A stretch of DNA of 44,757 nucleotides. It comes from a virus. The number at the start of each line of letters is the position of its first letter. The first letter of the stretch is position 1. The notes under the pieces were generated by a model that ran no database searches, was not told where the DNA came from, and worked only from the letters and a program-made list of their open reading frames with translations. The stretch lies in the IMG/VR virus record IMGVR_UViG_3300045988_163046, one strand, 5' to 3'. Shown piece by piece: positions 4,526-23,199 of the stretch. The translations under genes and the position numbers were made by a program.

Positions 4526-5425
4526 CTACTTTCTTTTCGCATAGCTCAATGATTCAAGATTCTGCTTTTTCATTTTCCGTGTTGTGCGAACATAGATTCT
4601 TGTAGTTTCTAAACTAGAATGGCCCAAAATGTCAGCTAGTTCTGCAATCGCATTTTCACCATTCTGCATCAAATACTGAATCGCAAACAAATGTCTGAAT
4701 GCATGAGGATGTACTTTACCAAGCTTAATTCCTCTGCATTTACCAGCAACCATCTTTAAGTCTCTAGACAACACACGAGCGTTTACAGGACTTTTCTTAT
4801 CAGAAGATGTAAATATACACCCTTCTTCAATTTTGTTGTCCTTGCAATATTTTAGAAGCTCTCGCCGCAAGTCTGAACGTAGAATGATTCCTCGACCTTT
4901 TCCTTTGTTCATAACATACACATTGTCATCCGTTACTGCTTCTACAGTAAAGAACTGTAGTTCGCTCAAACGAATGCCCGTATACCCAAACACCTTCATA
5001 ATCTCGTATAAGTCCATACGATTGATTTCACGAGCTTTTTTCAATAGCCTTTGAAATTCATTAGGCTCTAAAATATCATCCAAAGAATCATCTTTCTGGA
5101 CTCTCACGTTCTTCAATAAATTCTTTGAATAATATTTCTTTAGCTTAAGAAAATTAAAATCATCATCTGAATCAATGATTTCGCTATATTTAATAAATTT
5201 GTTTATGATCACAATATAGTTGTTTACTGTACTGATTTTATAATCATGCAGCAGTTTATCTTTCACACCAACTATATCGCTCTTTTGTATTTCACCATCA
5301 GGCAATGAGTTAACAAACAAAGTAGCAACATACTTGTATTTACGAATGGTATTCTTACTTTTCTCATCCGCTGTTTCTTCTTCAATAAACCCGTCAATTT
5401 TTGTTTGTAACTCATCCTTAGTCAT
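4526..5425 (-). CDS. Tyrosine recombinase, XerC/XerD-like (second recombinase of this genome)
   Basis: Catalytic signature GIRLSEL, HPHAFRH, LGHSSLETTRIYV. N-terminal SAM-like core-binding domain. Confidence 0.85.
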   Translation of the reverse strand: MTKDELQTKIDGFIEEETADEKSKNTIRKYKYVATLFVNSLPDGEIQKSDIVGVKDKLLHDYKISTVNNYIVIINKFIKYSEIIDSDDDFNFLKLKKYYSKNLLKNVRVQKDDSLDDILEPNEFQRLLKKAREINRMDLYEIMKVFGYTGIRLSELQFFTVEAVTDDNVYVMNKGKGRGIILRSDLRRELLKYCKDNKIEEGCIFTSSDKKSPVNARVLSRDLKMVAGKCRGIKLGKVHPHAFRHLFAIQYLMQNGENAIAELADILGHSSLETTRIYVRTTRKMKKQNLESLSYAKRK

Positions 5426-8384: not shown

Positions 8385-9398
8385 ATGAAATTATTCAAAA
8401 CTATTGGGATTGCTACGCTTGCACTATCCATGTGCACAGGATGTACAAGCTACAAAGAAAGAGTTAAAGCCAACAATCAAACAGAAGAAATAACTGACAG
8501 AGAATCAGATGATTTAAAAGCAAATTCTTTTGAAATTGGTGATTTTACTATATACTTACCTGAGTATTTTCAAAATGTCGTAAGTACAAAAGAAGGGCTA
8601 TCATTCAGGGCGGATGAAGGATATCCTATTTTAACCATCACTTTAATGGATATGGAATTGAATAGTGAAGCAGCGGATGCCTTTATGGATGCTTTAAAAG
8701 ACAGAGATGATTTCATGGAAGATACCGATACAAGTTATGGAATAAGAACATTAAAAAGAGCTGGTCGTACTGTATATTATTCAGAAACAACAGGAAATTT
8801 GACGTTAAATGATGATGACAGTGACAACGATACAAGCACACCGTCAAAATGCTTTATATATCTTTTATCAAATAACAATAAAACATCATTTATCAGTATG
8901 ATATTAATTCAGCCTAACGAAGGATTGAAATACGATTACGAAAATGAATTTGATAACATTGTTGATAATGTAGTTGTTAACGATAAAAAAGAGGAAGAAG
9001 AACAAAGCAATACAAATTCAACCACTTCAAATTCTTCTTCAAACAATTCATCTTCTTCACCAACTACAACTACTCCAAGTACAAATTCAAATGCATCAAC
9101 TCCATCTCCAACAACAGGAGAAAAAAATGCACTAAGAACTGCAAGAGAATATTTAAATATTTCTGCATTCTCTTATTCAGGATTAATTCATCAACTAGAA
9201 TATGAAGGTTACTCAACAGAGGAAGCCACTTATGCAGCTGATAACTGCAACGCAAACTGGAACGAGCAGGCCGCTAAATCAGCAAAAGAATATTTAGACA
9301 TATCGTCCTTCTCTCGACAAGGATTAATAGATCAATTGATTTATGAAGGTTATACACAAGAACAAGCAGAATATGGTGTAACACAAAACGGATATTAA
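8385..9398 (+). CDS. ltp: Ltp-family surface lipoprotein (superinfection-exclusion type)
   Basis: Signal peptide with a lipobox-like LSMCTGC, an S/T/N-rich linker, and two C-terminal Ltp repeats (NALRTAREYLNISAFSYSGLIHQLEYEGYSTEEATYAADN / AAKSAKEYLDISSFSRQGLIDQLIYEGYTQEQAEYGV). Confidence 0.8.
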   Translation: MKLFKTIGIATLALSMCTGCTSYKERVKANNQTEEITDRESDDLKANSFEIGDFTIYLPEYFQNVVSTKEGLSFRADEGYPILTITLMDMELNSEAADAFMDALKDRDDFMEDTDTSYGIRTLKRAGRTVYYSETTGNLTLNDDDSDNDTSTPSKCFIYLLSNNNKTSFISMILIQPNEGLKYDYENEFDNIVDNVVVNDKKEEEEQSNTNSTTSNSSSNNSSSSPTTTTPSTNSNASTPSPTTGEKNALRTAREYLNISAFSYSGLIHQLEYEGYSTEEATYAADNCNANWNEQAAKSAKEYLDISSFSRQGLIDQLIYEGYTQEQAEYGVTQNGY

Positions 9399-10707: not shown

Positions 10708-10924
10708 ACAATTTGTGTATATGGTGGGGCGATAGTTCCCACATCTCATCAGAATTTACATTCCTACCCTTGACACTTTCGTGCGCGATAGCCATCTTTC
10801 TATCCTCACATACACAATCAGAATGTTTTCTTTCAGCCAATAGACCTATCCAGTTCGAGGTGAACACAAACAACCCTACAGAAGCTATAAGCACTATGCA
10901 TGCTGGAACACAATACTTAATCAT
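10706..10924 (-). CDS. Possible 72-aa N-terminally membrane-anchored protein (uncertain)
   Basis: Hydrophobic N-terminus CVPACIVLIASVGLFVF and a weak RBS. An equally long ORF exists on the opposite strand. Local GC is elevated. Confidence 0.25.
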   Translation of the reverse strand: MIKYCVPACIVLIASVGLFVFTSNWIGLLAERKHSDCVCEDRKMAIAHESVKGRNVNSDEMWELSPHHIHKL

Positions 10925-11069
10925 AGCTTAACAGAACCTAATCTGTGACAAACAAGATAGAGCAGCAAGCTTATCTTCATCCGTATATTACATTATTTGC
11001 TAGTGAATTTCAATCAAATTTCTCCTATTTTGTACTTTTTTGTAACATTGTGTAATCTAATATCACTTT

Positions 11070-12167
11070 TTATAACAACTTATTCATCATATCAACAATG
11101 CTCTTATCTTTTGTATCAAACCAGTGTGCATATGTATTGTGCAATGTTTCAACTGTATCTCCTAAGCGTTTGGCTATGTCAAAATCTGAGAATCCAGCTC
11201 CAGCCATGTTATTAATTAGAAATGATGCGTGTGAATGTCTAAAATCATGAATTCTTATTTTAGGCAATCCATCATCTTTTTCTTTTGCCTTATTATATGC
11301 ATCATCAAATCTTCTTTGTACCGTTTGAGGTGATATTGGTTTATAGTATCCAAATACAAATTTATCTTTTGTGAAATCATCCCATTTAGAACATTCTAAA
11401 AACCATTCTCGAAGCATTTTAGACAATGTATTAGGCATTGTGATAGTTCTATAGCTATTGTTTGTTTTTGGCGGTGTAAGCCATTTATTAGGGTCTTTCT
11501 CTTTGTATCTATATGTTTTGTTGATGTCTATAGTTTGTTTTCTAAAATCAATGTCCTTCCATTGTAGGGCCATGGCTTCACCTTTTCGTAATCCCATATA
11601 GAATAAAACAGAATAAAAGCATTTCATCATTTGTTCATCCACTTCTTCAATGAATAAATCAAAATCATATTGCTGCCATATTGTCATTTCTTCTTTTCTT
11701 TCATTCAATCTAAGATCACGTTTTACATATGTCATTGGATTGGTTGGAATGTATTCAGAAGTAACACCAAATTTATATAGCTTATTTAAAAAGAAATATA
11801 TTCTTGATACGTATGCTTTTGAATATTTCTCATCAAATTTGTTGATCAAGTTTTGCATTTGCCTTTTATCTAGAAAATCAATATCTTTCATTTCCTTAGA
11901 AAGAACATTGTACAAATATTCATCTGATTTTAGTGTTGATTCTTTTACATATTTTTTATTATATTCTTTAAAAGCTTTATATAGTCTATCAAAATTCATA
12001 TCTGATGGAAGCATAAAGAAATCTTTCCTAAATTCAATCTCAGCTTTTTGTGCTTCCCATTTAGAATCAAAACCACGCTTACGATATCTCTTTATACATT
12101 TACCATCTTTATATATTTTCCCGGCAAACATATATTTTCCTGTTTTCCTATCTAATTCCACTGCCAT
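11070..12167 (-). CDS. int: Tyrosine integrase
   Basis: MGLRKGEA, RIHDFRHSHASFLI, LGDTVETLHNTYAH. An N-terminal AP2-like arm-binding region is present. The gene is adjacent to the putative attP. Confidence 0.9.
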   Translation of the reverse strand: MAVELDRKTGKYMFAGKIYKDGKCIKRYRKRGFDSKWEAQKAEIEFRKDFFMLPSDMNFDRLYKAFKEYNKKYVKESTLKSDEYLYNVLSKEMKDIDFLDKRQMQNLINKFDEKYSKAYVSRIYFFLNKLYKFGVTSEYIPTNPMTYVKRDLRLNERKEEMTIWQQYDFDLFIEEVDEQMMKCFYSVLFYMGLRKGEAMALQWKDIDFRKQTIDINKTYRYKEKDPNKWLTPPKTNNSYRTITMPNTLSKMLREWFLECSKWDDFTKDKFVFGYYKPISPQTVQRRFDDAYNKAKEKDDGLPKIRIHDFRHSHASFLINNMAGAGFSDFDIAKRLGDTVETLHNTYAHWFDTKDKSIVDMMNKLL

Positions 12168-12478: not shown

Positions 12479-13555
12479 TTATTCAATTTCTGTTAACGGT
12501 GTTGGATCAACCCAAACGCCACCAATCTTGACAATATTTTTTTGAACATTCACTGCATCGACTCTGATTCTAGATACGTAGACTACTGCATTTGTGGTAT
12601 GCAGTACATTGTCATTATATCCATCTGAATTTGGTACTTTATCTACCATACGAATAGGAAACCAACCTCCTAATTTAGACAAGTAGCAGCATAAATCATC
12701 GCCAATTTTCTTCAAGCCTTGGTTGCCAATTTTCATATGTACAGATGTAACATAGCTTCCTTCATGCAAGATTTGGTCGATAGTTTCTGCGCTAGACTGT
12801 GTAGCGCCTACTGGTGTATGGGGATCTGTATCAATACCAGCATCATTAGTCCATCCAATCGCTACTCCATTACGATCAACACGATATGGATATTTTGTTC
12901 CTTTAATTACTCTACCAATGACACCTGACCAATCACCTTTTTTAACTGTAGAAGTTCCGTAGCAATTCACACTCAATGTGTTTGTACAGATAGGTAAATT
13001 AACTGAATATTTTTCTCCACTTGGAGTTGTAGGTTTTGGTGTTTCAACCTTTCCATCTAACTTTGCATTTACTTCATTAGCCAATTGTGGCATACGTGCT
13101 TCCAACCATGCTCCAGGACATGATGTAGCCGAAAACATTTTGTGCATAGTCAATGATCCGCTAGAATTTCCTGTATAGTTCAATCTAAATCCATATCGTT
13201 TACAAATATCAACACATAGGTTCACCAAGCTATCCCAAGTAGCTTGCGTCATTTCTCCAGTTGCGTTATTAATGTTTCCACATTCAATTGTAATTGATTG
13301 AGAATCATTCAACCAATTTGAACTTGTCCATGCAGCATTTTCTTCATCAACACTGCATGCAATGTCTCCATTAATTCCAATACAATAATTGGAAGATGCT
13401 TGACGAGTATTTCGTGCAAAATAATCTGCACATTGTTTACCACTCCATGCCGCAGCCATGTAGTGTGGAGTGATTTTACAAACCTTATATCCAAAACGAC
13501 CATCATAATGTTGTGATGTTCTGTTACAATATGTTGCTAATCCGGAATACGACAT
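12479..13555 (-). CDS. Endolysin: N-acetylmuramoyl-L-alanine amidase (Amidase_2/PGRP-like) plus C-terminal wall-binding region
   Basis: ITPHYMAA...SSNYCIGINGDIACSVDEENAAWTSSN...SITIECGN. It is the last gene before attP and lies downstream of the holin. Confidence 0.85.
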   Translation of the reverse strand: MSYSGLATYCNRTSQHYDGRFGYKVCKITPHYMAAAWSGKQCADYFARNTRQASSNYCIGINGDIACSVDEENAAWTSSNWLNDSQSITIECGNINNATGEMTQATWDSLVNLCVDICKRYGFRLNYTGNSSGSLTMHKMFSATSCPGAWLEARMPQLANEVNAKLDGKVETPKPTTPSGEKYSVNLPICTNTLSVNCYGTSTVKKGDWSGVIGRVIKGTKYPYRVDRNGVAIGWTNDAGIDTDPHTPVGATQSSAETIDQILHEGSYVTSVHMKIGNQGLKKIGDDLCCYLSKLGGWFPIRMVDKVPNSDGYNDNVLHTTNAVVYVSRIRVDAVNVQKNIVKIGGVWVDPTPLTEIE

Positions 13556-13650
13556 TCTTCATCTACACCTTCTTCCTTGCCATTGCTTAATTCTTCTTTT
13601 GCTTCTTCTGATAGATTCTCATAATCTACTACTTTTTCTTCATCATTCAT
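13537..13650 (-). CDS. 37-aa acidic micro-ORF between holin and endolysin (uncertain)
   Basis: GGAGGA RBS 6 nt before the ATG at 13650. It overlaps the endolysin start by 19 nt. Sequence MNDEEKVVDYENLSEEAKEELSNGKEEGVDEECRIPD. Confidence 0.3.
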   Translation of the reverse strand: MNDEEKVVDYENLSEEAKEELSNGKEEGVDEECRIPD

Positions 13651-13652
13651 TA

Positions 13653-13874
13653 TTATTCCTCCGGTACACTAATTTCAGGTAATCCGCCAATACTAGTCAG
13701 CAACGAGACGATGCCTGACAAAACCGCTGACGAAATTACAACTCGCCAATCAACGGCTTCCAATAATGCAGATGCTCCAATAACACCAACAGCAGTTTGA
13801 GCAATTGTCTTTAATGCTCTGATACTTGCATAATAGCCATATTGAACCCACCATTCTTTACTATATTTTTTCAT
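13653..13874 (-). CDS. Holin (phiLC3-type, Phage_holin_4-like)
   Basis: The pattern IRALKTIAQTAVGVIGA...VDWRVVISSAVLSGIVSLLTSIGGLPE matches phiLC3-family holins. It sits immediately upstream of the endolysin. Confidence 0.8.
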   Translation of the reverse strand: MKKYSKEWWVQYGYYASIRALKTIAQTAVGVIGASALLEAVDWRVVISSAVLSGIVSLLTSIGGLPEISVPEE

Positions 13875-13953
13875 TTACAAATACCTCCTATCCTAATAAT
13901 AGTATTTAAATCGTTTGTACACTGTACAAAATAAAAGACCGTATTTAACGGCC

Positions 13954-14436
13954 TTATTGATACATATTAAACATGTCTCGTATATGTGTCTTAATCATTG
14001 TTTTTTCTTCATCTGAATCAACGCATCCATGAATCATAGTTACGATTTGTTGCATACATTTCATAGTCTTATCTAATTCACGATGAGACTTTTCCAAATC
14101 CATCTCGCCTTTTGTACGCTTATATTCTTCTTTGAACGCTTTATATTTTTTCAAATGTTCCGCAAGCTTATAAACAATATCTTCTGTTTCTGGATCATGA
14201 ATATTATATCCATCATTATCTTCTTTTAATCGGGCTACAGTTGAAACTCCATCTTTCCCTATCTCAATTTGATATTTATTTCTCATTGCTTCTATAGTTT
14301 CAATATCTTTGATATTATCCAAAGCTTGAGATAATGCATGGAAATAAGATTCTGCATATCCATATTTCTCTAACATGTTTACTGACTCATGCATTATCTT
14401 TTCATTAACTTCCATTGCTTTATGCATATTTTTCAC
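13954..14436 (-). CDS. Hypothetical helical protein (last gene of the five-gene cassette)
   Basis: 160-aa ORF abutting the upstream gene (stop and start adjacent). No motif. Confidence 0.55.
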   Translation of the reverse strand: MKNMHKAMEVNEKIMHESVNMLEKYGYAESYFHALSQALDNIKDIETIEAMRNKYQIEIGKDGVSTVARLKEDNDGYNIHDPETEDIVYKLAEHLKKYKAFKEEYKRTKGEMDLEKSHRELDKTMKCMQQIVTMIHGCVDSDEEKTMIKTHIRDMFNMYQ

Positions 14437-14856
14437 CTACGCAATCTTTTTAATGATAATGTTTGCATTTTGAATAGATAGATCTAAACCACTGTCATTT
14501 GCTAATGCAATTGTATAAGATGCGCCACATGGAACTTGAATTAGAGTGTCTCCACTTACATTTCCGTATGCATTTGCAGTTGCAACAGTATAAATAGATT
14601 GTGTTCCACCAATTGCTTCTCCGTTTAGTTCAAGTACTAAAGAAGCTTGTCCTGCCGCTGCACTCGTAATATCCGCAGTATAAGTTACTTCATAGATACC
14701 TGGCTTTGTTAGTGTAAACAATCCACTTCCTAGATCGTGTGCCAACCATCCTTTACATGGACACTGGCATGATTTTGATCTTACACGATCTGTAGGAAAC
14801 AAAACATTATTTGAATTATCGACTGTCTGAACAGCCGTAGCAATACTATTAATCAT
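14437..14856 (-). CDS. Small beta-rich protein resembling the BclA C-terminal / C1q-TNF jelly-roll domain
   Basis: The pattern VLFP.D......GLFTLTKPGIYEVTYTADITSAAAGQASLVLELNGEAI........NVSG.TLIQV..GASYTIALAN is reminiscent of BclA-CTD-like proteins of Firmicutes. Confidence 0.4.
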   Translation of the reverse strand: MINSIATAVQTVDNSNNVLFPTDRVRSKSCQCPCKGWLAHDLGSGLFTLTKPGIYEVTYTADITSAAAGQASLVLELNGEAIGGTQSIYTVATANAYGNVSGDTLIQVPCGASYTIALANDSGLDLSIQNANIIIKKIA

Positions 14857-14943
14857 TTCTTTTATCCTCCTATTAAAATAGGGATAGCCTTTTGACTATC
14901 CCGTTAAATCCAAAGGCAATTGCCTAATCACATATGTGCTAGA

Positions 14944-15567
14944 TTATAAGTTGTTGTAGCCATTACATCCACATCCGTTGTTATAAGCGTAATATGGTGA
15001 ACATGTAATGTAAGCTGGTTTTGGTGTTGGTTGCAAAGTATTAATGATGTTTGCTGATTGTGCCTGTTGACTTAATTGGAAATTAGCCGTCAATAATTCA
15101 CGATCACGATCAGCTAAACGATCACGTAATTCTTGCATAGTGTTTGCATTGATCAACGCACGTGTTGCTTCACCTTCTGAATGAATTGCTGTTGTAATGT
15201 CACAAGTATTTTTGAAACTTTGAGCATTTACATTGTCAATTGCTCGTTGAGTGTTGCAGCAGCATTCTTGTTGCTGAGCTTGCAAGTTTTGAAGTCCTAA
15301 CTGATTAGTATAGCGACTTTCTAATACATCACGTTGAGTTTGACAACCTGTTTGAGATACATTTGTGTTTGTGTTAAAAATATCTCGTTTAATGAATTCT
15401 TCATTTAATAAAGAATCATTTGTTAGGTTTCCGTTGCCATATCCTCCATATCCAAATAATACGAAGATTAGCAAGATCCAAATCCACCAACCTCCTCCGT
15501 CTCCAAAGCCGTCATTTCTTTCGGCTAAGTTGTAAGTTGGTTGAATTCCCATTCCGTTTTCCATCAT
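14944..15567 (-). CDS. Membrane-anchored Cys-cluster protein with a Gly/Trp-rich YjcZ-like segment
   Basis: GFGDGGGWWIWILLIFVLFGYGGYGNG hydrophobic segment. Cys clusters QQQECCCNTQ and YNNGCGCNGYNNL at the C-terminus. Confidence 0.55.
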   Translation of the reverse strand: MMENGMGIQPTYNLAERNDGFGDGGGWWIWILLIFVLFGYGGYGNGNLTNDSLLNEEFIKRDIFNTNTNVSQTGCQTQRDVLESRYTNQLGLQNLQAQQQECCCNTQRAIDNVNAQSFKNTCDITTAIHSEGEATRALINANTMQELRDRLADRDRELLTANFQLSQQAQSANIINTLQPTPKPAYITCSPYYAYNNGCGCNGYNNL

Positions 15568-15608
15568 ATATGTTCTCCTTTCTTTCTATAATAACGGTTT
15601 ATCCGTTG

Positions 15609-15851
15609 TTACCTGATTCCAAACTGTTTTGCCATTTGTTGAAGTTGTTGCTTTTGTTGTGGATTTAAATTACCCATCATCTGATTTAAAATCATTTGTG
15701 GATTTTGGCCACTGTTCATAAGCATTTGAAATTGTTGAAATGCTTGTGGATTTTTCTGTGATAGCATATTCATTAACATTTGTTGGGGATTTCCCATATT
15801 CATCATATTCATTGGATTCATATTACCCATAATACTTTTTAAAGGATTCAT
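15609..15851 (-). CDS. Met/Asn/Gln/Pro low-complexity protein (NPQ repeats)
   Basis: MGNMNPMNMMNMGNPQQMLMNMLSQKNPQAFQQFQMLMNSGQNPQMILNQMMGNLNPQQKQQLQQ. ATGA-coupled to the upstream gene. Confidence 0.5.
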   Translation of the reverse strand: MNPLKSIMGNMNPMNMMNMGNPQQMLMNMLSQKNPQAFQQFQMLMNSGQNPQMILNQMMGNLNPQQKQQLQQMAKQFGIR

Positions 15852-16297
15852 TTTGTTTGTGCTCCTTTCTTTGGTTGCTCATTAGCTTGTTTTGGTGGTT
15901 TGCTTAATGCACATATCAAATCATCTAATTTCTTTTCGATTCCATTTACACGATTTTCAATACTGTTAGAAGTATCTTCCGTGATTTCTTCAAATTTAAA
16001 TTTTTTAAATGTTCCATCTAAAGATTTCATATAAAAAATAGATTTATTGTTATCAAATAAAATCGTTGGTAAATTTGCATTCGCAAAGTTTCTAGCTTCC
16101 TGCTCATCGTTCACCCATTTTCCATTAAAATCAAAATTACCTTGTTGTTGTGGTGTAATCTGATTATTAATGTTGATAGGTGGAATATTTGCATACTGTT
16201 GTACTTGCTGAATTTGTTGATCTATCATTTGTCTTTGCTGCATCAAACTGTCAATTCGTGCTTGTGCTGGATTATAATTGTTATACATTTCAACCAC
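15848..16297 (-). CDS. Gln-rich N-terminal protein, first gene of the cassette
   Basis: AAAGAGGTGG RBS. N-terminus SLMQQRQMIDQQIQQVQQ and a C-terminal coiled segment. Confidence 0.55.
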   Translation of the reverse strand: MVEMYNNYNPAQARIDSLMQQRQMIDQQIQQVQQYANIPPININNQITPQQQGNFDFNGKWVNDEQEARNFANANLPTILFDNNKSIFYMKSLDGTFKKFKFEEITEDTSNSIENRVNGIEKKLDDLICALSKPPKQANEQPKKGAQTK

Positions 16298-16379
16298 CTC
16301 TTTATTACGCTTTAATTATATGGTTACGCAACAAATAATTTAATACTCGAATAATACTCATAAAATACCCAAAATAAAA

Positions 16380-16403
16380 TGAGCAACCATTATAGATTGC
16401 TCA
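16380..16403 (-). terminator. Intrinsic terminator separating the tail-fibre operon from the cassette
   Basis: TGAGCAA-10 nt-TTGCTCA followed on the minus strand by TTTTATTTT. It overlaps the stop of 16390..16626. Confidence 0.6.
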
Positions 16404-16626
16404 CATATTTATCAAACATTTTTCTTGCTTTGCATACTCTGTTCCTTATGGTTTGTACTTCCATATGTAATGCATCTGCAATTTCGGTACATGACATGTC
16501 ATATACGTATCTCATAATCAAAACCTGTTCATATTTCTTTCTTAATCCAACAGACTTGATAAGTATTAATGCATCATTAGGACGTATCTCTTTTAATCTG
16601 TTAGCTTTGTTAATATAAACCACCAC
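16390..16626 (-). CDS. Stand-alone sigma-70 region-4-like HTH protein
   Basis: LRKKYEQVLIMRYVYDMSCTEIADALHMEVQTIRNRVCKARKMF fits the region 4.2 pattern. Only 78 aa. Confidence 0.5.
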   Translation of the reverse strand: MVVYINKANRLKEIRPNDALILIKSVGLRKKYEQVLIMRYVYDMSCTEIADALHMEVQTIRNRVCKARKMFDKYVSNL

Positions 16627-16631
16627 CTTAA

Positions 16632-16865
16632 TTAAATTCGTTGGTTTGAATTAGCTTCGCAAGAACAATTATTCACATGATCATCTTTCCAATAACCACG
16701 ACAAACAATGGTAGAATAAAGAACAATAATCACTAAAACCAATACTGTAATAATCGTTCTACTTGTTTTATAGTTTCGATCAATTAATTTTGAACAAAAA
16801 CCATAAATGTTATCTACTTTTTCTTCTACATTTTGAAGTTTCTTGTTTGTATCTTTAATATCCAT
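16632..16865 (-). CDS. XhlA-like coiled-coil protein with C-terminal TM helix
   Basis: N-terminal coiled coil, then TIITVLVLVIIVLYSTIV. Architecture as in PBSX XhlA-type lysis accessory proteins. Confidence 0.4.
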   Translation of the reverse strand: MDIKDTNKKLQNVEEKVDNIYGFCSKLIDRNYKTSRTIITVLVLVIIVLYSTIVCRGYWKDDHVNNCSCEANSNQRI

Positions 16866-17148
16866 TTTTATTACGTTCCTCCAACGCTTCTACACGATTA
16901 AACAAAGTTTTTATTTGTTGTTTTAGTTCTGAAAGCTCCACTTCCATTGAATTGCTTCCTTTTTTTATTTCTGAAATTGAATCCTTTATATCACCTAAAT
17001 CCGATTTAATATGTTCCAATTCATTCTTCAAAAATGCCATATTGGATATTTGCTCTCCATCCATCTTTCGTGTGCCACGATTATACGTAATAAATGCAAT
17101 TACAAGCATGCATGCAGAAATAATAACACTAAGATATTCTCCACTCAT
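16855..17148 (-). CDS. Membrane-anchored coiled-coil protein
   Basis: N-terminal TM VIISACMLVIAFITY, then a heptad-rich helix. Confidence 0.5.
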   Translation of the reverse strand: MSGEYLSVIISACMLVIAFITYNRGTRKMDGEQISNMAFLKNELEHIKSDLGDIKDSISEIKKGSNSMEVELSELKQQIKTLFNRVEALEERNKNGY

Positions 17149-17215: not shown

Positions 17216-19663
17216 TTAACCTAGCAGACCATATCCGCTACCGAATTTGTTAAAATCCCAATATGTTGCATGACTTAGTTTGTAGCTTTCACCAATTCCA
17301 ACATATCTAATGGCTTTTATTTCACTAGGTTCTGATTCAAATGTGTCTAAATCTGCATATTTGATAGGAATATTTTCAACACCTAACTCAACTGCAAAAA
17401 TTCTGATTTTTCCGTTGTCTAATCGAATTGCAAATTGACCCTCAGCATAGCCAAATGTCTGTAAATTATTACCAACTGAAACAAACTCACCTGATAATGA
17501 ATCGGATTTTAAAATATGGAGTGAATCATAACGTTTAGATTCATCTTTTATGATTGCGTAAAAATAATTGTTTTCATAATAAATATGCACATCTATGGTC
17601 TGAGGGTAATCTTTAAAATTAAATTTACTTGTTGGAGAAACAGTGTGCGTAATATAATCATATTCTCCATATCGAGTGCCTTGCAACCCACTGTCACTAT
17701 TCAGAATTACATACAATTTTCCGTCATGTTTGAACCAACAAGGTGCCCAAATCACTACAGGCTCAGAACCGTCTGCATTTGTAATGTCTATAGGCTCAAG
17801 TTCTTCATAATCTACAAAATTTATAGTTCTGCACATATATAATTTTGTAGAATCTGTATATCCATCTGAATATACAATATAATAGTACTTTCCTATTTGA
17901 GTTATAGCTGGGTCTCTTAAAGCGTTAGTTCTTCCTTTTGTCATGTTATAAGCATTTTTGTTTATCAAGTAAAATGTTTCCAAATCGTCACTGCCAAGTA
18001 ATGATAAGTGTTGTTCGTCATACCCAAAACTAACCATTAAGTATCTATACATTGTTTTGATTGGTTCAGAAATCAGATTTTGCGTTGCTTCAATTTGTTT
18101 TCTTAAAGCTTCTCCTGCATTAGAATAAATAACGCCATCGGCACCAACTCTCATATCCTGTAATTCTGCATCACCGGACGTTGACCCATTTGGTAAAGAC
18201 GTGAAATTATCAATTCTTTTACGTTCTACGTCTAATTTATCTTCTGCTGAACTGATTTTAGAATCAATTAAAGATATTTCAGTTTCTGAATTGGTAACTT
18301 TTAATGTAATACTGTCGATTTTAGAATCAATTTCTTTTTTATTATAGAAATTTTCAACATTTTCTTTTTTTGCTACAATTTTTACGTTTTCAAAATACAT
18401 CTTTCCGAAACTACAACTAACATATATTGCATTTTTTGGAACTGATACTTCGTCTTTGTTGAAAGTCCCCGATATATAGTTATAATCATTATCATAGAAA
18501 ACAATTTGTTTATATAGCCCATTATCGCCAATATTATAGCCTGTCACTGATAATTTCACTGCATTGCTTGGGATTCGCATAAACGGTGTACAATAATATG
18601 AAATATCATATTCATTACGACCTGTATTTGGATTTATCGCAAACGTATCAAGCAAATCTTCTTTTCTAAAATTAAACGAATAAAAATCTTGCATTTTTTC
18701 TGTGTTTAATTTTTCTACAGTTTCGACTAAATTTCGTATTTTATAATTTATAACTCGTGGTCTGTACTCATAATTGAAACCAAACGATAATCTTAAAAAT
18801 CTTGCTTCATCTGGTGAAATGGCACTTAACGTATCAATATCAGCACCCATATCTTTATATGTACCCCTAATATATTTTTTGTTGATATCATAAAATTCAT
18901 AGAATATATAACCTCTACCAACAAAATAATACATTTCCCTAGGGGTTACTACTATATAATCTGTATAGCAAAAATTAGGATCACCAACTAAAGGTTCTCT
19001 TCCGCTTCCATCTATATTTTTTCCTTTATAAATAGTTACGCCATTTAATAAATTCTCTTGTAATTCGCTAATAGCGCTACGTTCTAAATAATCACACTCT
19101 TCCTTTAGTGAATTAACTTGTGATTGCAAATTTTCACTTTGTGTATTTATCATATTTGATAACTCGTTATAGATTTGTGCAATTCTATCTTCTTCTTCGC
19201 TACTAGGAGTATAAGATTTAATATAAATTCCATCAGGTGTAGTAACAGATGCAATTTGTGTAGACCATTTTTGATTAATCACACTTGAATTATCTTCTGT
19301 AATTACAGCGCTCATCGCAAAATGCAAAACCCCTGAGTTTTTCAAAGCATCAAATGGTACTTTCCATGCAAATTCACAAATATCATTACTAATTGTTTTG
19401 TTAATCGCAATTGACTGACCCTTAACTCCCTTAGAATCAATCCAATTTATATAAACAATTGAATCTTGCATTTTTTGAATTTCAGATAACTTGTTTCTGA
19501 TTCTAAATTTAATCAGTTTAGAATTTCCATCATATTGCACTCCGAACAATCTAGATACATTATTAATATTAATAGTATGTGTATCTGTATCAATCGTAAG
19601 ATATTCATCATCATAATCATAAGCAACCGCATCAAAACTTAGTCTTGCTTTCAATCCATCCAT
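17216..19663 (-). CDS. Tail fibre / receptor-binding protein with C-terminal GH43-like five-bladed propeller
   Basis: 815 aa. Central coiled coils. The C-terminal motifs LRDPAI, VIWAPCWF, IDVHIY and AEGQFAI match the Asp/Asp/Glu arrangement of GH43-type glycosidases. Confidence 0.55.
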   Translation of the reverse strand: MDGLKARLSFDAVAYDYDDEYLTIDTDTHTININNVSRLFGVQYDGNSKLIKFRIRNKLSEIQKMQDSIVYINWIDSKGVKGQSIAINKTISNDICEFAWKVPFDALKNSGVLHFAMSAVITEDNSSVINQKWSTQIASVTTPDGIYIKSYTPSSEEEDRIAQIYNELSNMINTQSENLQSQVNSLKEECDYLERSAISELQENLLNGVTIYKGKNIDGSGREPLVGDPNFCYTDYIVVTPREMYYFVGRGYIFYEFYDINKKYIRGTYKDMGADIDTLSAISPDEARFLRLSFGFNYEYRPRVINYKIRNLVETVEKLNTEKMQDFYSFNFRKEDLLDTFAINPNTGRNEYDISYYCTPFMRIPSNAVKLSVTGYNIGDNGLYKQIVFYDNDYNYISGTFNKDEVSVPKNAIYVSCSFGKMYFENVKIVAKKENVENFYNKKEIDSKIDSITLKVTNSETEISLIDSKISSAEDKLDVERKRIDNFTSLPNGSTSGDAELQDMRVGADGVIYSNAGEALRKQIEATQNLISEPIKTMYRYLMVSFGYDEQHLSLLGSDDLETFYLINKNAYNMTKGRTNALRDPAITQIGKYYYIVYSDGYTDSTKLYMCRTINFVDYEELEPIDITNADGSEPVVIWAPCWFKHDGKLYVILNSDSGLQGTRYGEYDYITHTVSPTSKFNFKDYPQTIDVHIYYENNYFYAIIKDESKRYDSLHILKSDSLSGEFVSVGNNLQTFGYAEGQFAIRLDNGKIRIFAVELGVENIPIKYADLDTFESEPSEIKAIRYVGIGESYKLSHATYWDFNKFGSGYGLLG

Positions 19664-21609: not shown

Positions 21610-23199
21610 TTATACCTCACTTTCTAATACAAGATCTAAATCTTCAGGCCGTTCTGTGATCAAGTTATAGGTCAATTTGTTTAAATAAAACCTTTCTCGT
21701 TTTCCAAAATCAGTCTCTACAAAAATTGAATCATTTATTTTTAACGCCTGTGCATTCGGCACATTGTATGGAAATAATTCTTCAAATTTAACAGAAGTTT
21801 CTGTTTTTGGTTCTTGCAGTTCTTTCTCCAAAGATTTTTTAGCTTGTATTCTAAGATAGTTTCTTAGGTTCACTTCATTTGTAAATACACCCAATGTTGT
21901 TTTCTTTGCTTGTGAATCATCCGCAATCAATTTGATATTGGAATATTCTTTTACATCAATTCTGTGAATTTCATCTGTATCCCAATTACTAGCCTTGACA
22001 ATCTCGTGATTTGGTAAAATGCGTCCATTGTACGCTTTAGGTATGATTCCTGTAACTACATTTTCCATTGATTTTTTCTTAGTGTATTCAGACATTTCTT
22101 TATTACTTATAAAGAAACCATTGGGCTTCAAATTAAAAGCATAGTAATCTGGATTCCCAAAGTAGCAGTCATAATTGTTAAACATCGCAACATATCTGTT
22201 ATTTTCACATTCAGGCCATCGGTTCATCATAGAATTTTCTTCTGTACCAAACAAGCATTGAATCAGATTATATCGAACCCAATATGCCGTTTGTGTAGAA
22301 TCAAGATCTTCAATCATCCATTTACACGCATTTCCAACTTCGGCAGCACCTCTATCAGAAACAATAACTTTGTTTCCGTTGCCAATACTCGTTGAACTAG
22401 GGTAGATGCCATAATATATGTTTTCATACGGTGCAATTTCATAATTAGATCCACTATTAATGAACCACCATTTTTCAGAATTATCTGATGGACTTTCAGA
22501 TAGACTACCTAGCACAACCTTTCCTGAATCCAATTTAAGCCATCTACATGAACATAAAGATAAAATTCCATATATATCTCCATATCTATCTGAGCCTACT
22601 TTTTTCAACATAAAAGTCTGTGCAGACGTTCTGTTTCTTTGATACATCTGTAGTTGTATAGATGCATCTTCACTTGCGCTTGGAACATCTAAACAATATC
22701 CACTATTCTGAACATTTCGGAAATAAACGATTTTTTCATTCTCTGCATTAACGTTGGTATAGTTTGCATATTTTCCATGTCCATAAATTTTATAAGGATA
22801 ATTGGGCCGTGAATTTGTGATAATATCATTCGCACTGTTTATCGCATCTTGCCACGTACCACTCATAGTACGATCATCAAACACAAACACTTCTTTTTGA
22901 GAATCAAAGAACACATGTGTTGCATAGCATGTATATGTATCGCTTTGTTTGTTGTATTTTGGATACACAATTCTATATAACTGTGGTTCTTCAAAATTTA
23001 TATCCACTTTAAACACGGATTCATCACTGATTTCCATACCCATCAAATCACTTTTTGGAAATTCTATTTCTACGTACCAAATAGAATTTCTTTCAAACAC
23101 TGCTTTTGCACTAACACAATGTTTTAAAATCACATCTCCATTACGTTCTTTCATTTGTGCATATGTTGTTTTTTTTCTAGAAAAGAATAACTGAATCAT
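21610..23199 (-). CDS. Tail-associated lysin-position protein (Tal) with an inserted lectin-like (ricin-type beta-trefoil?) region
   Basis: N-terminus typical of siphophage Tal/gp27-like proteins. The central region carries repeated ..W motifs (CRWLKL, EKWWFI, CKWMIE). Confidence 0.6.
   Translation of the reverse strand: MIQLFFSRKKTTYAQMKERNGDVILKHCVSAKAVFERNSIWYVEIEFPKSDLMGMEISDESVFKVDINFEEPQLYRIVYPKYNKQSDTYTCYATHVFFDSQKEVFVFDDRTMSGTWQDAINSANDIITNSRPNYPYKIYGHGKYANYTNVNAENEKIVYFRNVQNSGYCLDVPSASEDASIQLQMYQRNRTSAQTFMLKKVGSDRYGDIYGILSLCSCRWLKLDSGKVVLGSLSESPSDNSEKWWFINSGSNYEIAPYENIYYGIYPSSTSIGNGNKVIVSDRGAAEVGNACKWMIEDLDSTQTAYWVRYNLIQCLFGTEENSMMNRWPECENNRYVAMFNNYDCYFGNPDYYAFNLKPNGFFISNKEMSEYTKKKSMENVVTGIIPKAYNGRILPNHEIVKASNWDTDEIHRIDVKEYSNIKLIADDSQAKKTTLGVFTNEVNLRNYLRIQAKKSLEKELQEPKTETSVKFEELFPYNVPNAQALKINDSIFVETDFGKRERFYLNKLTYNLITERPEDLDLVLESEV

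Follow-up and report, generated by a model that had tools for sequence, protein, structure and literature searches.

A conserved, dispensable gene cassette of gut phages encodes a cysteine-rich signature protein and a BclA-C-type head and may specify a stalk-and-head assembly

Analysis of IMG/VR virus record IMGVR_UViG_3300045988_163046, a stretch of 44,757 nucleotides (nt) referred to here as the window and numbered from its first letter, was centred on a five-gene cassette that a first reading of the letters alone (the original prediction) had singled out as compositionally odd. The window is a siphovirus-type prophage of low GC content (~33%) with almost every gene on the minus strand, and the cassette, made up of five minus-strand open reading frames (ORFs) at 13954-16297, sits between a pair of XhlA-like and transmembrane (TM) genes and the holin gene with terminator-like hairpins at its borders. 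All five ORFs were confirmed as real, each preceded by a good Shine-Dalgarno sequence, and they belong to a discrete unit, the gene order of which is shared by hundreds of unrelated phage loci, far above chance. The transcriptional anatomy of the unit can be read as sig4, hairpin T1, g1-g2-g3, hairpin T2, g4-g5 and hairpin T3.

All features of the unit lie on the minus strand. The usual first gene is sig4 (16390..16626; 78 amino acids, aa), which encodes a stand-alone sigma-70 region-4 or helix-turn-helix (HTH) protein, and it is followed by the core members g1 (15848..16288; 146 aa) and g2 (15609..15851; 80 aa), the latter always immediately upstream of the gene of the signature protein g3 (14944..15567; 207 aa). 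Beyond these stand g4 (14437..14856; 139 aa), a free-standing head of BclA-C or C1q-TNF type, and g5 (13954..14427; 157 aa), a helical accessory protein. The ATG starts at 16288 for g1 and 14427 for g5 are the better supported ones and agree with independent gene calls in locus L005, a near-identical phage integrated beside radC, mreC and polA.

The intrinsic terminator noticed ahead of the cassette proved real: T1 (16379..16404; -15.2 kcal/mol, z -4.3) is a hairpin with a U-run that overlaps the sig4 stop and lies upstream of g1. T2 (14881..14902; -14.8 kcal/mol, z -3.6), whose U-run is interrupted, occupies the gap between g3 and g4 and ends just ahead of the g4 ribosome-binding site (RBS), while the terminator-like T3 (13935..13955; -10.1 kcal/mol, z -3.75) closes the unit upstream of the holin gene. 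None of 200 shuffles folded as stably as any of the three, all of which have U-runs on the coding strand. The original description of the five genes as tightly coupled is correct for g1 and g2, which overlap by 4 nt, and for g4 and g5, which are 9 nt apart, but not for the 87-nt gap between g3 and g4, where T2 intervenes. Between T1 and g1 a candidate promoter with a weak -35 element (TTAAAT-17 nt-TATAAT, 16315..16343) could be picked out by reading the sequence, and it was not picked up by a consensus scan that needs four of six matches per hexamer.

The hairpins recur in relatives of the unit. An equivalent of T1 within 150 nt upstream of g1 was found in 27 of 54 de-replicated loci as against 10% of control ORFs, in some loci only 10–20 nt from the RBS, and an equivalent of T2 ends 2–30 nt before the start codon of the head gene in 16 of 26 loci with g4 and 9 of 32 loci with its substitute g4c (controls, 10%). 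The T2 site is too tight for a promoter, so T2 would have to attenuate transcription or stabilise the upstream mRNA; it is likely to be an attenuator or mRNA stabiliser, and either effect would leave the products of g1-g3 more abundant than those of g4-g5.

Searching with a g3 profile retrieved 224 loci in species-representative genomes and at least 503 in IMG/VR. ORFs were called in 169 loci, iterated hidden Markov models (HMMs) were built for each gene, and gene frequencies were taken from 44 loci de-replicated at <70% g3 identity and having sufficient flank; relatives of g3 and g4 were also seen side by side in unrelated phage records by tblastn. The recurrent order is sig4-g1-g2-g3-(gS)-g4 or g4c-(gF)-(g5), brackets marking accessory genes. 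The co-occurrence survey proposed in the original prediction places the core in 95–98% of the de-replicated loci (g1 in 98%, g2 or a g2-like small ORF rich in M/Q/N/P in 95%, g4 or g4c in 98%), while sig4 lies directly upstream of g1 in 45% and also in most viral contigs, so that this gene, first described as a neighbour, is better seen as the usual first gene of the unit. The accessory genes are scarcer (g5-type and gS, 23% each; gF, 16%), and the window has the four-gene core together with sig4 and g5. Among close relatives of the window phage with enough flank, the unit is intact in 45 of 49, and one relative is a deletion derivative. In a natural deletion variant of the window phage (L216 6284-6963) sig4, g1, g2, g3 and the 5' part of g4 are gone, and g5, holin and endolysin remain.

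The signature protein g3 is built from a Gly-flanked Trp/aliphatic hydrophobic segment of ~15 residues (27-40), a helical region with a CCC motif and NTCDI, a long helix (115-169), TCSPY and a C-terminal CGC. The compositions given in the original prediction hold throughout, namely the Gln/Asn-rich N-terminus of g1, the Q/M/N/P-rich g2 and the GGGWWIWILLIFVLFGYGGYGNG, ECCCN and GCGCNGY stretches of g3. At 90% identity the g3 family falls into more than 5,106 clusters, and at 50% into 1,148. Its members all stand alone, are no longer than 299 aa and have neither a name nor a Pfam domain, and no Rosetta-stone fusion turned up in the top 150 g3 representatives or in 120 g1 matches. All de-replicated members share the Gly-flanked hydrophobic segment, NTCD, the long helix, P.PAY.TCSPY and a Cys/Gly/Tyr tail at the C-terminus; all 63 contain at least one CCC motif, and 94% have a C-terminal Cys cluster. 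Cysteine makes up 4.3% of g3, 3.0% of g4 and 5.3% of g4c against a background of 1.4%, and while g1 and g2 are almost Cys-free, clusters also mark the N-termini of g4c (91%) and g4 (54%). Automatic annotation names some g3 relatives "spike protein/glycoprotein" or "outer capsid protein/viral fiber" (L172, phage cr116_1; L173, phage C3_41T2LP). No match of g3 to a lysis category (holin, spanin or XhlA) was obtained in Pfam, PHROG or NCBIfam. Its proposed likeness to YjcZ-type sporulation peptides was not borne out either, since NCBIfam gave no TIGR01732 match at E<=0.1 and a protein of 207 aa is not a tiny peptide.

For g4, the reading as a jelly-roll of the BclA C-terminal or C1q type was upheld. 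Its sequence matches Pfam BclA_C (PF18573) above the cut-off (41.4 bits against 38, E 1.6e-10) and PHROG phrog_20016 (E 2e-18), and a profile of its family finds as the best structure in the PDB 9h38 (E 6e-7), which the F-ENA paper identifies as the C-terminal head of F-BclA, then BclA itself (2z5w, E 5e-4), with 2r6q, 3twi and 1wck also matched. The match to C1q (PF00386) stayed below the gathering threshold (13.1 bits against 23.7, E 0.11), and g4 is related to C1q at the superfamily level only, through BclA_C (PMC12357932). The protein carries a CxCxC cluster at its N-terminus; its 139 residues hold no GXY repeats, no cassette protein has a Collagen match in Pfam, and the exosporium leader TIGR03720 gave no NCBIfam match at E<=0.1.

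In half of the loci the place of g4 is taken by g4c, a Cys-rich beta protein with CxxxCxxC at the N-terminus in 91% of cases. Profile-profile comparison shows the two to be unrelated (hhalign probability 0.3%), a g4c profile found nothing in the PDB beyond coiled-coil or designed-protein noise, and neither g4 nor 28 g4c members matched the ENA subunit families DUF3992 and DUF4183 in Pfam. The head gene is swapped in this way while g1-g3 and the C-terminal motif of g3 stay constant, which fits an exchangeable distal module.

Across all members searched in Pfam, PHROG and NCBIfam, only BclA_C in g4 and Sigma70_r4 in sig4 were significant, and the PHROG matches of cassette genes all fall under "unknown function", in keeping with the initial remark that the cassette resembles no standard tail, lysis or conversion family. 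g1 consists of a Q/N/Y-rich N-terminal helix, a disordered linker, an alpha/beta domain of ~45 aa, a C-terminal helix and a Lys-rich basic tail; its family has at least 1,485 clusters, all unnamed, with no Pfam or PDB match. The AlphaFold2 (AF2) model of g3 was unusable (predicted local distance difference test, pLDDT, 45), and that of g1 (pLDDT 58) retrieved with Foldseek a best PDB match at E 0.2 and, from BFVD, only unannotated gut-phage homologs with automatic names. g2 (Q 21%, M 20%, N 16%, P 8%) folds into short NP-capped helices by prediction, has no meaningful PDB or Pfam match and is possibly a holdase for the hydrophobic segment of g3. An STI1/SGTA-like identity for g2, suggested by the existence of Met-rich hydrophobic-binding domains, was set aside; no Pfam STI1 match was seen.

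Relatives of g5 often have an Arg/Gly/Tyr-rich centre, and no significant family or structure match was found for g5, profile searches of the PDB giving only noise for it and only coiled-coil or designed-protein noise for g1, g2 and g4c as well. A relation of g5 to YppG (PF14179) was rejected: the match scores 21 bits against 27 (E 5.9e-4), covers 42 residues only and is absent from the search with the g5 family profile. Inspection of sequence and hydropathy showed nothing resembling a signal peptide at the N-terminus of g1, g2, g4 or g5. In some loci the protein at the g5 position is instead Pfam DUF7841 (E 1e-29; L170 11578-12048, L169 11200-11709), a family that goes unmentioned in the literature searched. 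The accessory gene gF, which does not occur in the window, encodes a divergent ferritin-like four-helix-bundle protein (for example L001 4604-5197 and L003 6322-6849) that matches PDB ferritins by profile (E 1.5e-5) and no Pfam family, with invariant His, His, Glu and Glu positions and without the canonical ferritin ExxH. Between g2 and g3 of Clostridium phage CPD1 a Cys-rich HNH-like ORF of 216 aa is inserted (L003 4005-4655), and HNH families of PHROG also recur among downstream neighbours, which suggests that homing endonucleases target the cassette.

The sigma region-4 assignment of the upstream protein was confirmed, sig4 matching Sigma70_r4_2 at E 2.1e-10 (40.6 bits against 25.7) and PHROG sigma-factor and Q-like families. 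Its 78 residues comprise region 4 only, and NCBIfam sigma matches fall far below their cut-offs and cover the C-terminal ~50 model residues; lacking region 2, it is not a sigma factor. Similarity to Phage_antitermQ (PF06530) reaches 21.7 bits against 26 and that to phrog_79 E 1.5e-5. A terminator follows the gene, with no Q-binding or pause element identified, and in Bacteroidota phages an excisionase-type HTH stands in its place. Small region-4, LuxR/GerE-type or Q-like phage regulators resemble sig4 in that an HTH protein is encoded directly before a terminator and its presumed targets, and differ in that the Q-family score of sig4 is below the cut-off.

Carriers of the cassette are firmly placed in Holdemanella biformis prophages, the Clostridium perfringens phages CPD1, XP41-N3, CPQ4, HMD-PC1, PMQ04 and 17DYC, Butyrivibrio phage Ceridwen, a Coprococcus comes isolate, a Dialister isolate (2.5-Mb contig) and Phascolarctobacterium (545-kb contig), and less certainly in loci binned with metagenome-assembled genomes of Treponema, Gastranaerophilales, Mycoplasmatota, Fibrobacter and others. 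Outside Bacillota the g3 family extends to many crAss-like phages, to Bacteroides uniformis phage C3_41T2LP and to viruses assigned to Methanomassiliicoccales; in these three groups the HMMs detect g3 only and the adjoining small genes differ. Downstream of g3 in cr116_1 (L172 5047-6616) and C3_41T2LP (L173) lie the genes of two proteins, one of 136 aa that contains Cys and is rich in beta structure and one of 168 aa that combines beta structure with a coiled coil; they recall g4c and g1 in make-up and were not detected by the HMMs. All sample names that could be interpreted were gut or faecal. H. biformis DSM3989 is included in a panel of spore-formers and former spore-formers whose main text does not give its class (PMC8340488), so any argument from non-sporulation rests on the other hosts.

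The unit is co-oriented with tail genes and lies downstream of them, its upstream neighbours being mostly tail genes and endolysins and its downstream neighbours heterogeneous. The commonest family just downstream is phrog_3754 of the "unknown function" category (8 de-replicated loci), which may be a further accessory member. In the crAss-like phage cr116_1 the cassette fills a 3.8-kb gap between homologs of gp30 and gp31 of PhiCrAss001, a phage that has 235 nt at this site and in which a search with the cassette HMMs found no cassette; it can be deduced from this pair that the unit is accessory and not part of the essential virion. A weak match to gp12 of PhiCrAss001 (13.5 bits) was dismissed, gp12 being a Cys-free coiled coil.

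Taken together, these observations make the locus one copy of an accessory operon, autonomous and dispensable, that is carried by phages of anoxic animal guts, and the reading that we tentatively prefer, at less than even confidence, is that of a late, secretion-independent, Cys-linked assembly of stalk and head, similar in its working to BclA and ENA fibres and owned by the phage. The novel fibre-tip or decoration complex of the original prediction thereby remains the best available reading. The cassette would be expressed with the late genes or just after them, and the assembly would be built inside the infected cell with no secretion. Its abundant subunit would be g3, with an N-terminal hydrophobic segment serving as an anchor or for bundle formation, a helical stalk with CCC "knots" and a Cys/Gly/Tyr tail, onto which g4, presumably a trimeric BclA-C/C1q-type head and the less abundant distal module, might dock through its N-terminal Cys cluster; in other loci g4c would take this part. 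T2 would set the amount of g3 above that of g4, g1 and the Met-rich g2 could be assembly factors, g2 shielding the hydrophobic segment of g3, and sig4 may be a regulator dedicated to the unit. After its presumed release at lysis, the product could act as an adhesive or protective appendage, attached either to virions or to lysis debris.

Several observations count against this proposal. No virion proteomics of carrier phages was found in the searched literature, and hydrophobic segments of 15 residues are a trait of membrane proteins more than of the fibres of virions. With AF2 models of such low quality (g3, pLDDT 45; g1, pLDDT 58) a coiled-coil trimer has no support from them, nor does the C-terminus of g3 co-vary with the type of its partner, g4 or g4c. 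g3 is the one member that can still be recognised in Bacteroidota phages, the Dialister prophage has a cassette without any head gene, and in CPD1, Dulem virus 39 and C3_41T2LP the unit stands among replication or recombination genes, not structural ones.

Comparison with known fibres is most instructive for the BclA proteins of spore surfaces. As in BclA, F-BclA and L-BclA, g4 has a C-terminal head of the BclA-C (C1q/TNF) type, and as in L-BclA it has an N-terminal Cys motif and belongs to a small operon with a Cys-rich fibre subunit; the design shared with the three would be, by analogy, cytoplasmic assembly without secretion and release at lysis. The L-ENA system is encoded by three genes, with mRNA levels that differ ~10-fold within one operon, and it includes the C1q-like L-BclA, for which coupling to a disulfide-linked fibre by way of an N-terminal double Cys has been proposed (PMC11362473). 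With ENA fibres at large (Ena1, Ena3A, F-ENA) the proposed likeness lies in a small gene set, covalent building through Cys, a minor tip borne by a major subunit and expression levels that differ within one operon. The differences are equally plain: BclA has a collagen-like GXY stalk and an exosporium leader, whereas g4 is only 139 aa long and has neither, the presumed stalk of the cassette is a separate helical protein, g3, and the cassette is phage-encoded and found mostly in non-sporulating hosts. g3, g4 and g4c have no DUF3992 or DUF4183 similarity, g3 is predicted to be helical and not a jelly-roll, and the cassette, unlike ENA, is known from its genes alone. Lacking collagen stalk, exosporium leader, ENA folds and spore context, the cassette is not a member of these systems, though by analogy it may work like BclA/ENA spore fibres.

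Decoration and head-fibre proteins of phages (phi29/Nf-type) are alike in their indel-like accessory distribution, the logic of a trimeric head and a place near late genes, and gp21 of PhiCrAss001 is annotated as of head-fibre type; they differ in having no sequence similarity to the cassette. Known decoration proteins have, to our knowledge, neither a hydrophobic N-terminal segment nor a regulator of their own. The T4 holin T, a class III holin, has one N-terminal transmembrane domain and a large C-terminal domain with a disulfide. g3 is alike in size and layout, with a short N-terminus, one hydrophobic helix and a Cys-containing C-domain of ~165 aa, and the cassette often stands by lysis genes; it differs in that no family match exists, its C-domain is predicted to be helical with CCC and CGC, separate holins are present and g3 comes with g1, g2 and g4 or g4c.

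With regard to the genome in which the cassette lies, the closest-named proteins in NCBI, near-identical ones, are from Holdemanella biformis, and the window phage can be assigned as an H. biformis siphovirus prophage. A DNA search against 50,697 phage records gave no match. Its late module includes TerL, portal, major capsid, tape measure and Dit proteins, a Tal-like protein of 529 aa with a ricin-type lectin domain (21610-23199, minus strand) and, just upstream of the lysis region, a protein of 815 aa (17216-19663, minus strand) whose C-terminal domain is weakly GH43-like (26.6 bits, the cut-off being 32.2) and which has no PHROG match. The XhlA-like gene (16855-17148) and a 77-aa TM gene (16632-16865) precede the block of sig4 and cassette, and an r1t-type holin (13653-13874), an Amidase_2 endolysin (12479-13555) and an integrase (11070-12167) follow it, the last marking the phage as temperate. 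In the interval between holin and endolysin a strongly acidic ORF of 37 aa (MNDEEKVVDYENLSEEAKEELSNGKEEGVDEECRIPD; 13537-13650, minus strand) overlaps the endolysin start. Directly downstream of the integrase, near the presumed prophage end, a drum RNA (RF02958, 74.8 bits; 10818-10929, minus strand) stands in tandem with a skipping-rope RNA (RF02924, 57.9 bits; 10716-10814, minus strand). A second gene of the Phage_integrase family (4526-5425, minus strand) lies ~6 kb beyond the first, and the left 10 kb of the window may be another mobile element or an unusual lysogeny region.

The neighbourhood of lysis genes raises the alternative of a membrane-associated accessory of lysis or egress, in which the N-terminal helix of g3 would lie in the cytoplasmic membrane and the module would modulate holin triggering, envelope disruption or release, with g3 likened in architecture to T4 holin T or to egress proteins of archaeal viruses. 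The hydrophobic segment is universal in g3, and adjacency to lysis genes has arisen in independent lineages: the window cassette stands between the XhlA-like and TM genes and the holin, those of L170 and Ceridwen follow a GH25 endolysin and the phage's endolysin respectively, that of cr116_1 follows holin and L,D-carboxypeptidase, that of the Dialister prophage precedes TM, XhlA-like and endolysin genes, L025 and L060 show the same, and endolysin families of PHROG occur among upstream neighbours. Such adjacency may, however, reflect no more than the fact that the end of the late operon tolerates insertions, and in CPD1, Dulem 39 and C3_41T2LP the unit is far from lysis genes. No member matches holin, spanin or lysis families in the three databases, the phages already have holin and endolysin, the segment has no flanking positive charges and therefore no positive-inside signal, and it is difficult to see what part an exchangeable C1q-type head, apparently devoid of a signal peptide, would play in lysis. 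We consider this explanation unlikely. A moron serving lysogenic conversion or superinfection exclusion, transcribed on its own from the prophage and altering the envelope or blocking incoming phage DNA, is improbable. It would account for terminators on both sides, a possible promoter and regulator of its own, the varying, indel-like genome position and the integrase of the temperate window phage, but the unit is also carried by crAss-like phages and by phages that were isolated from plaques and are not known to be temperate, it is co-oriented with late genes, and in several loci the upstream hairpin leaves no space for a promoter, so that transcription must come from the upstream late genes. 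Apart from g3, moreover, no member could reach the envelope, and the lysogeny region of the window phage holds a 337-aa protein (8385-9398, plus strand) with two Lipoprotein_Ltp repeats (E 3e-29), a superinfection-exclusion lipoprotein of the TP-J34 Ltp type, which means that a conventional exclusion gene is already present.

The Cys clusters (CCC, CxxxCxxC, CGC) could also be taken not as cross-links but as ligands of iron-sulfur or other metal centres in a metal or redox module acting with gF, and the near-universal CxxxCxxC of g4c, the ferritin-like profile of gF and a distribution restricted to anaerobic gut communities agree with this. Yet gF is present in few loci, is missing from the window and lacks the ferritin ExxH, no enzyme or cofactor-biosynthesis domain was found in the cassette, and the low-complexity, helical and jelly-roll make-up looks structural, all of which renders a metal role very improbable. 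Finally, the spore-coat or exosporium hypothesis of the original prediction, whereby phage-borne proteins act on the host spore, drew on the BclA_C domain of g4, a coat-protein-like composition (Cys, Gly/Tyr and Gln-rich), the weak YppG match and the fact that some hosts such as C. perfringens sporulate. It is now scarcely credible: the cassette or its g3 core is carried in the non-sporulating hosts Bacteroides, Dialister, Phascolarctobacterium and Butyrivibrio and in crAss-like phages too, a finding of the kind that the original prediction itself named as fatal to the idea; exosporium leader and collagen repeats are missing, and the tests for YjcZ and YppG failed. The weight that remains beyond the stalk-and-head assembly and these rivals goes to something else.

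Overall, no description of the cassette was found in the literature searched, which included BclA with prophage, PF18573, the carrier phages and viruses of Methanomassiliicoccales, and three of the four core families (g1, g2 and g3) have no detectable relative of known function and no confident fold. The cassette is thus provisionally new, by exclusion; should the stalk and head be confirmed, it would be better filed among BclA/ENA-like fibres. A wider and rather unlikely proposition is that gut phages of siphovirus, myovirus and crAss-like types share across host phyla a portable, "spore-appendage-like" kit, a cysteine-rich stalk and head made in the anoxic cytoplasm, freed at lysis and disulfide-hardened by oxygen, for adhesion, clustering or persistence of virions between animal hosts; if true, it would be the phage counterpart of the BclA/ENA spore surface. 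Cultured carriers exist in CPD1, Ceridwen, C3_41T2LP and the Holdemanella prophages, with PhiCrAss001 as a natural comparator lacking the unit against phages of the cr116_1 type. The reach of g3 extends from prophages of bacteria common in the human gut to crAss-like phages and to viruses assigned to methanogens of the gut, and a module so common, whose order and regulatory layout are kept across phage families, likely has a general role in the life of gut phages.

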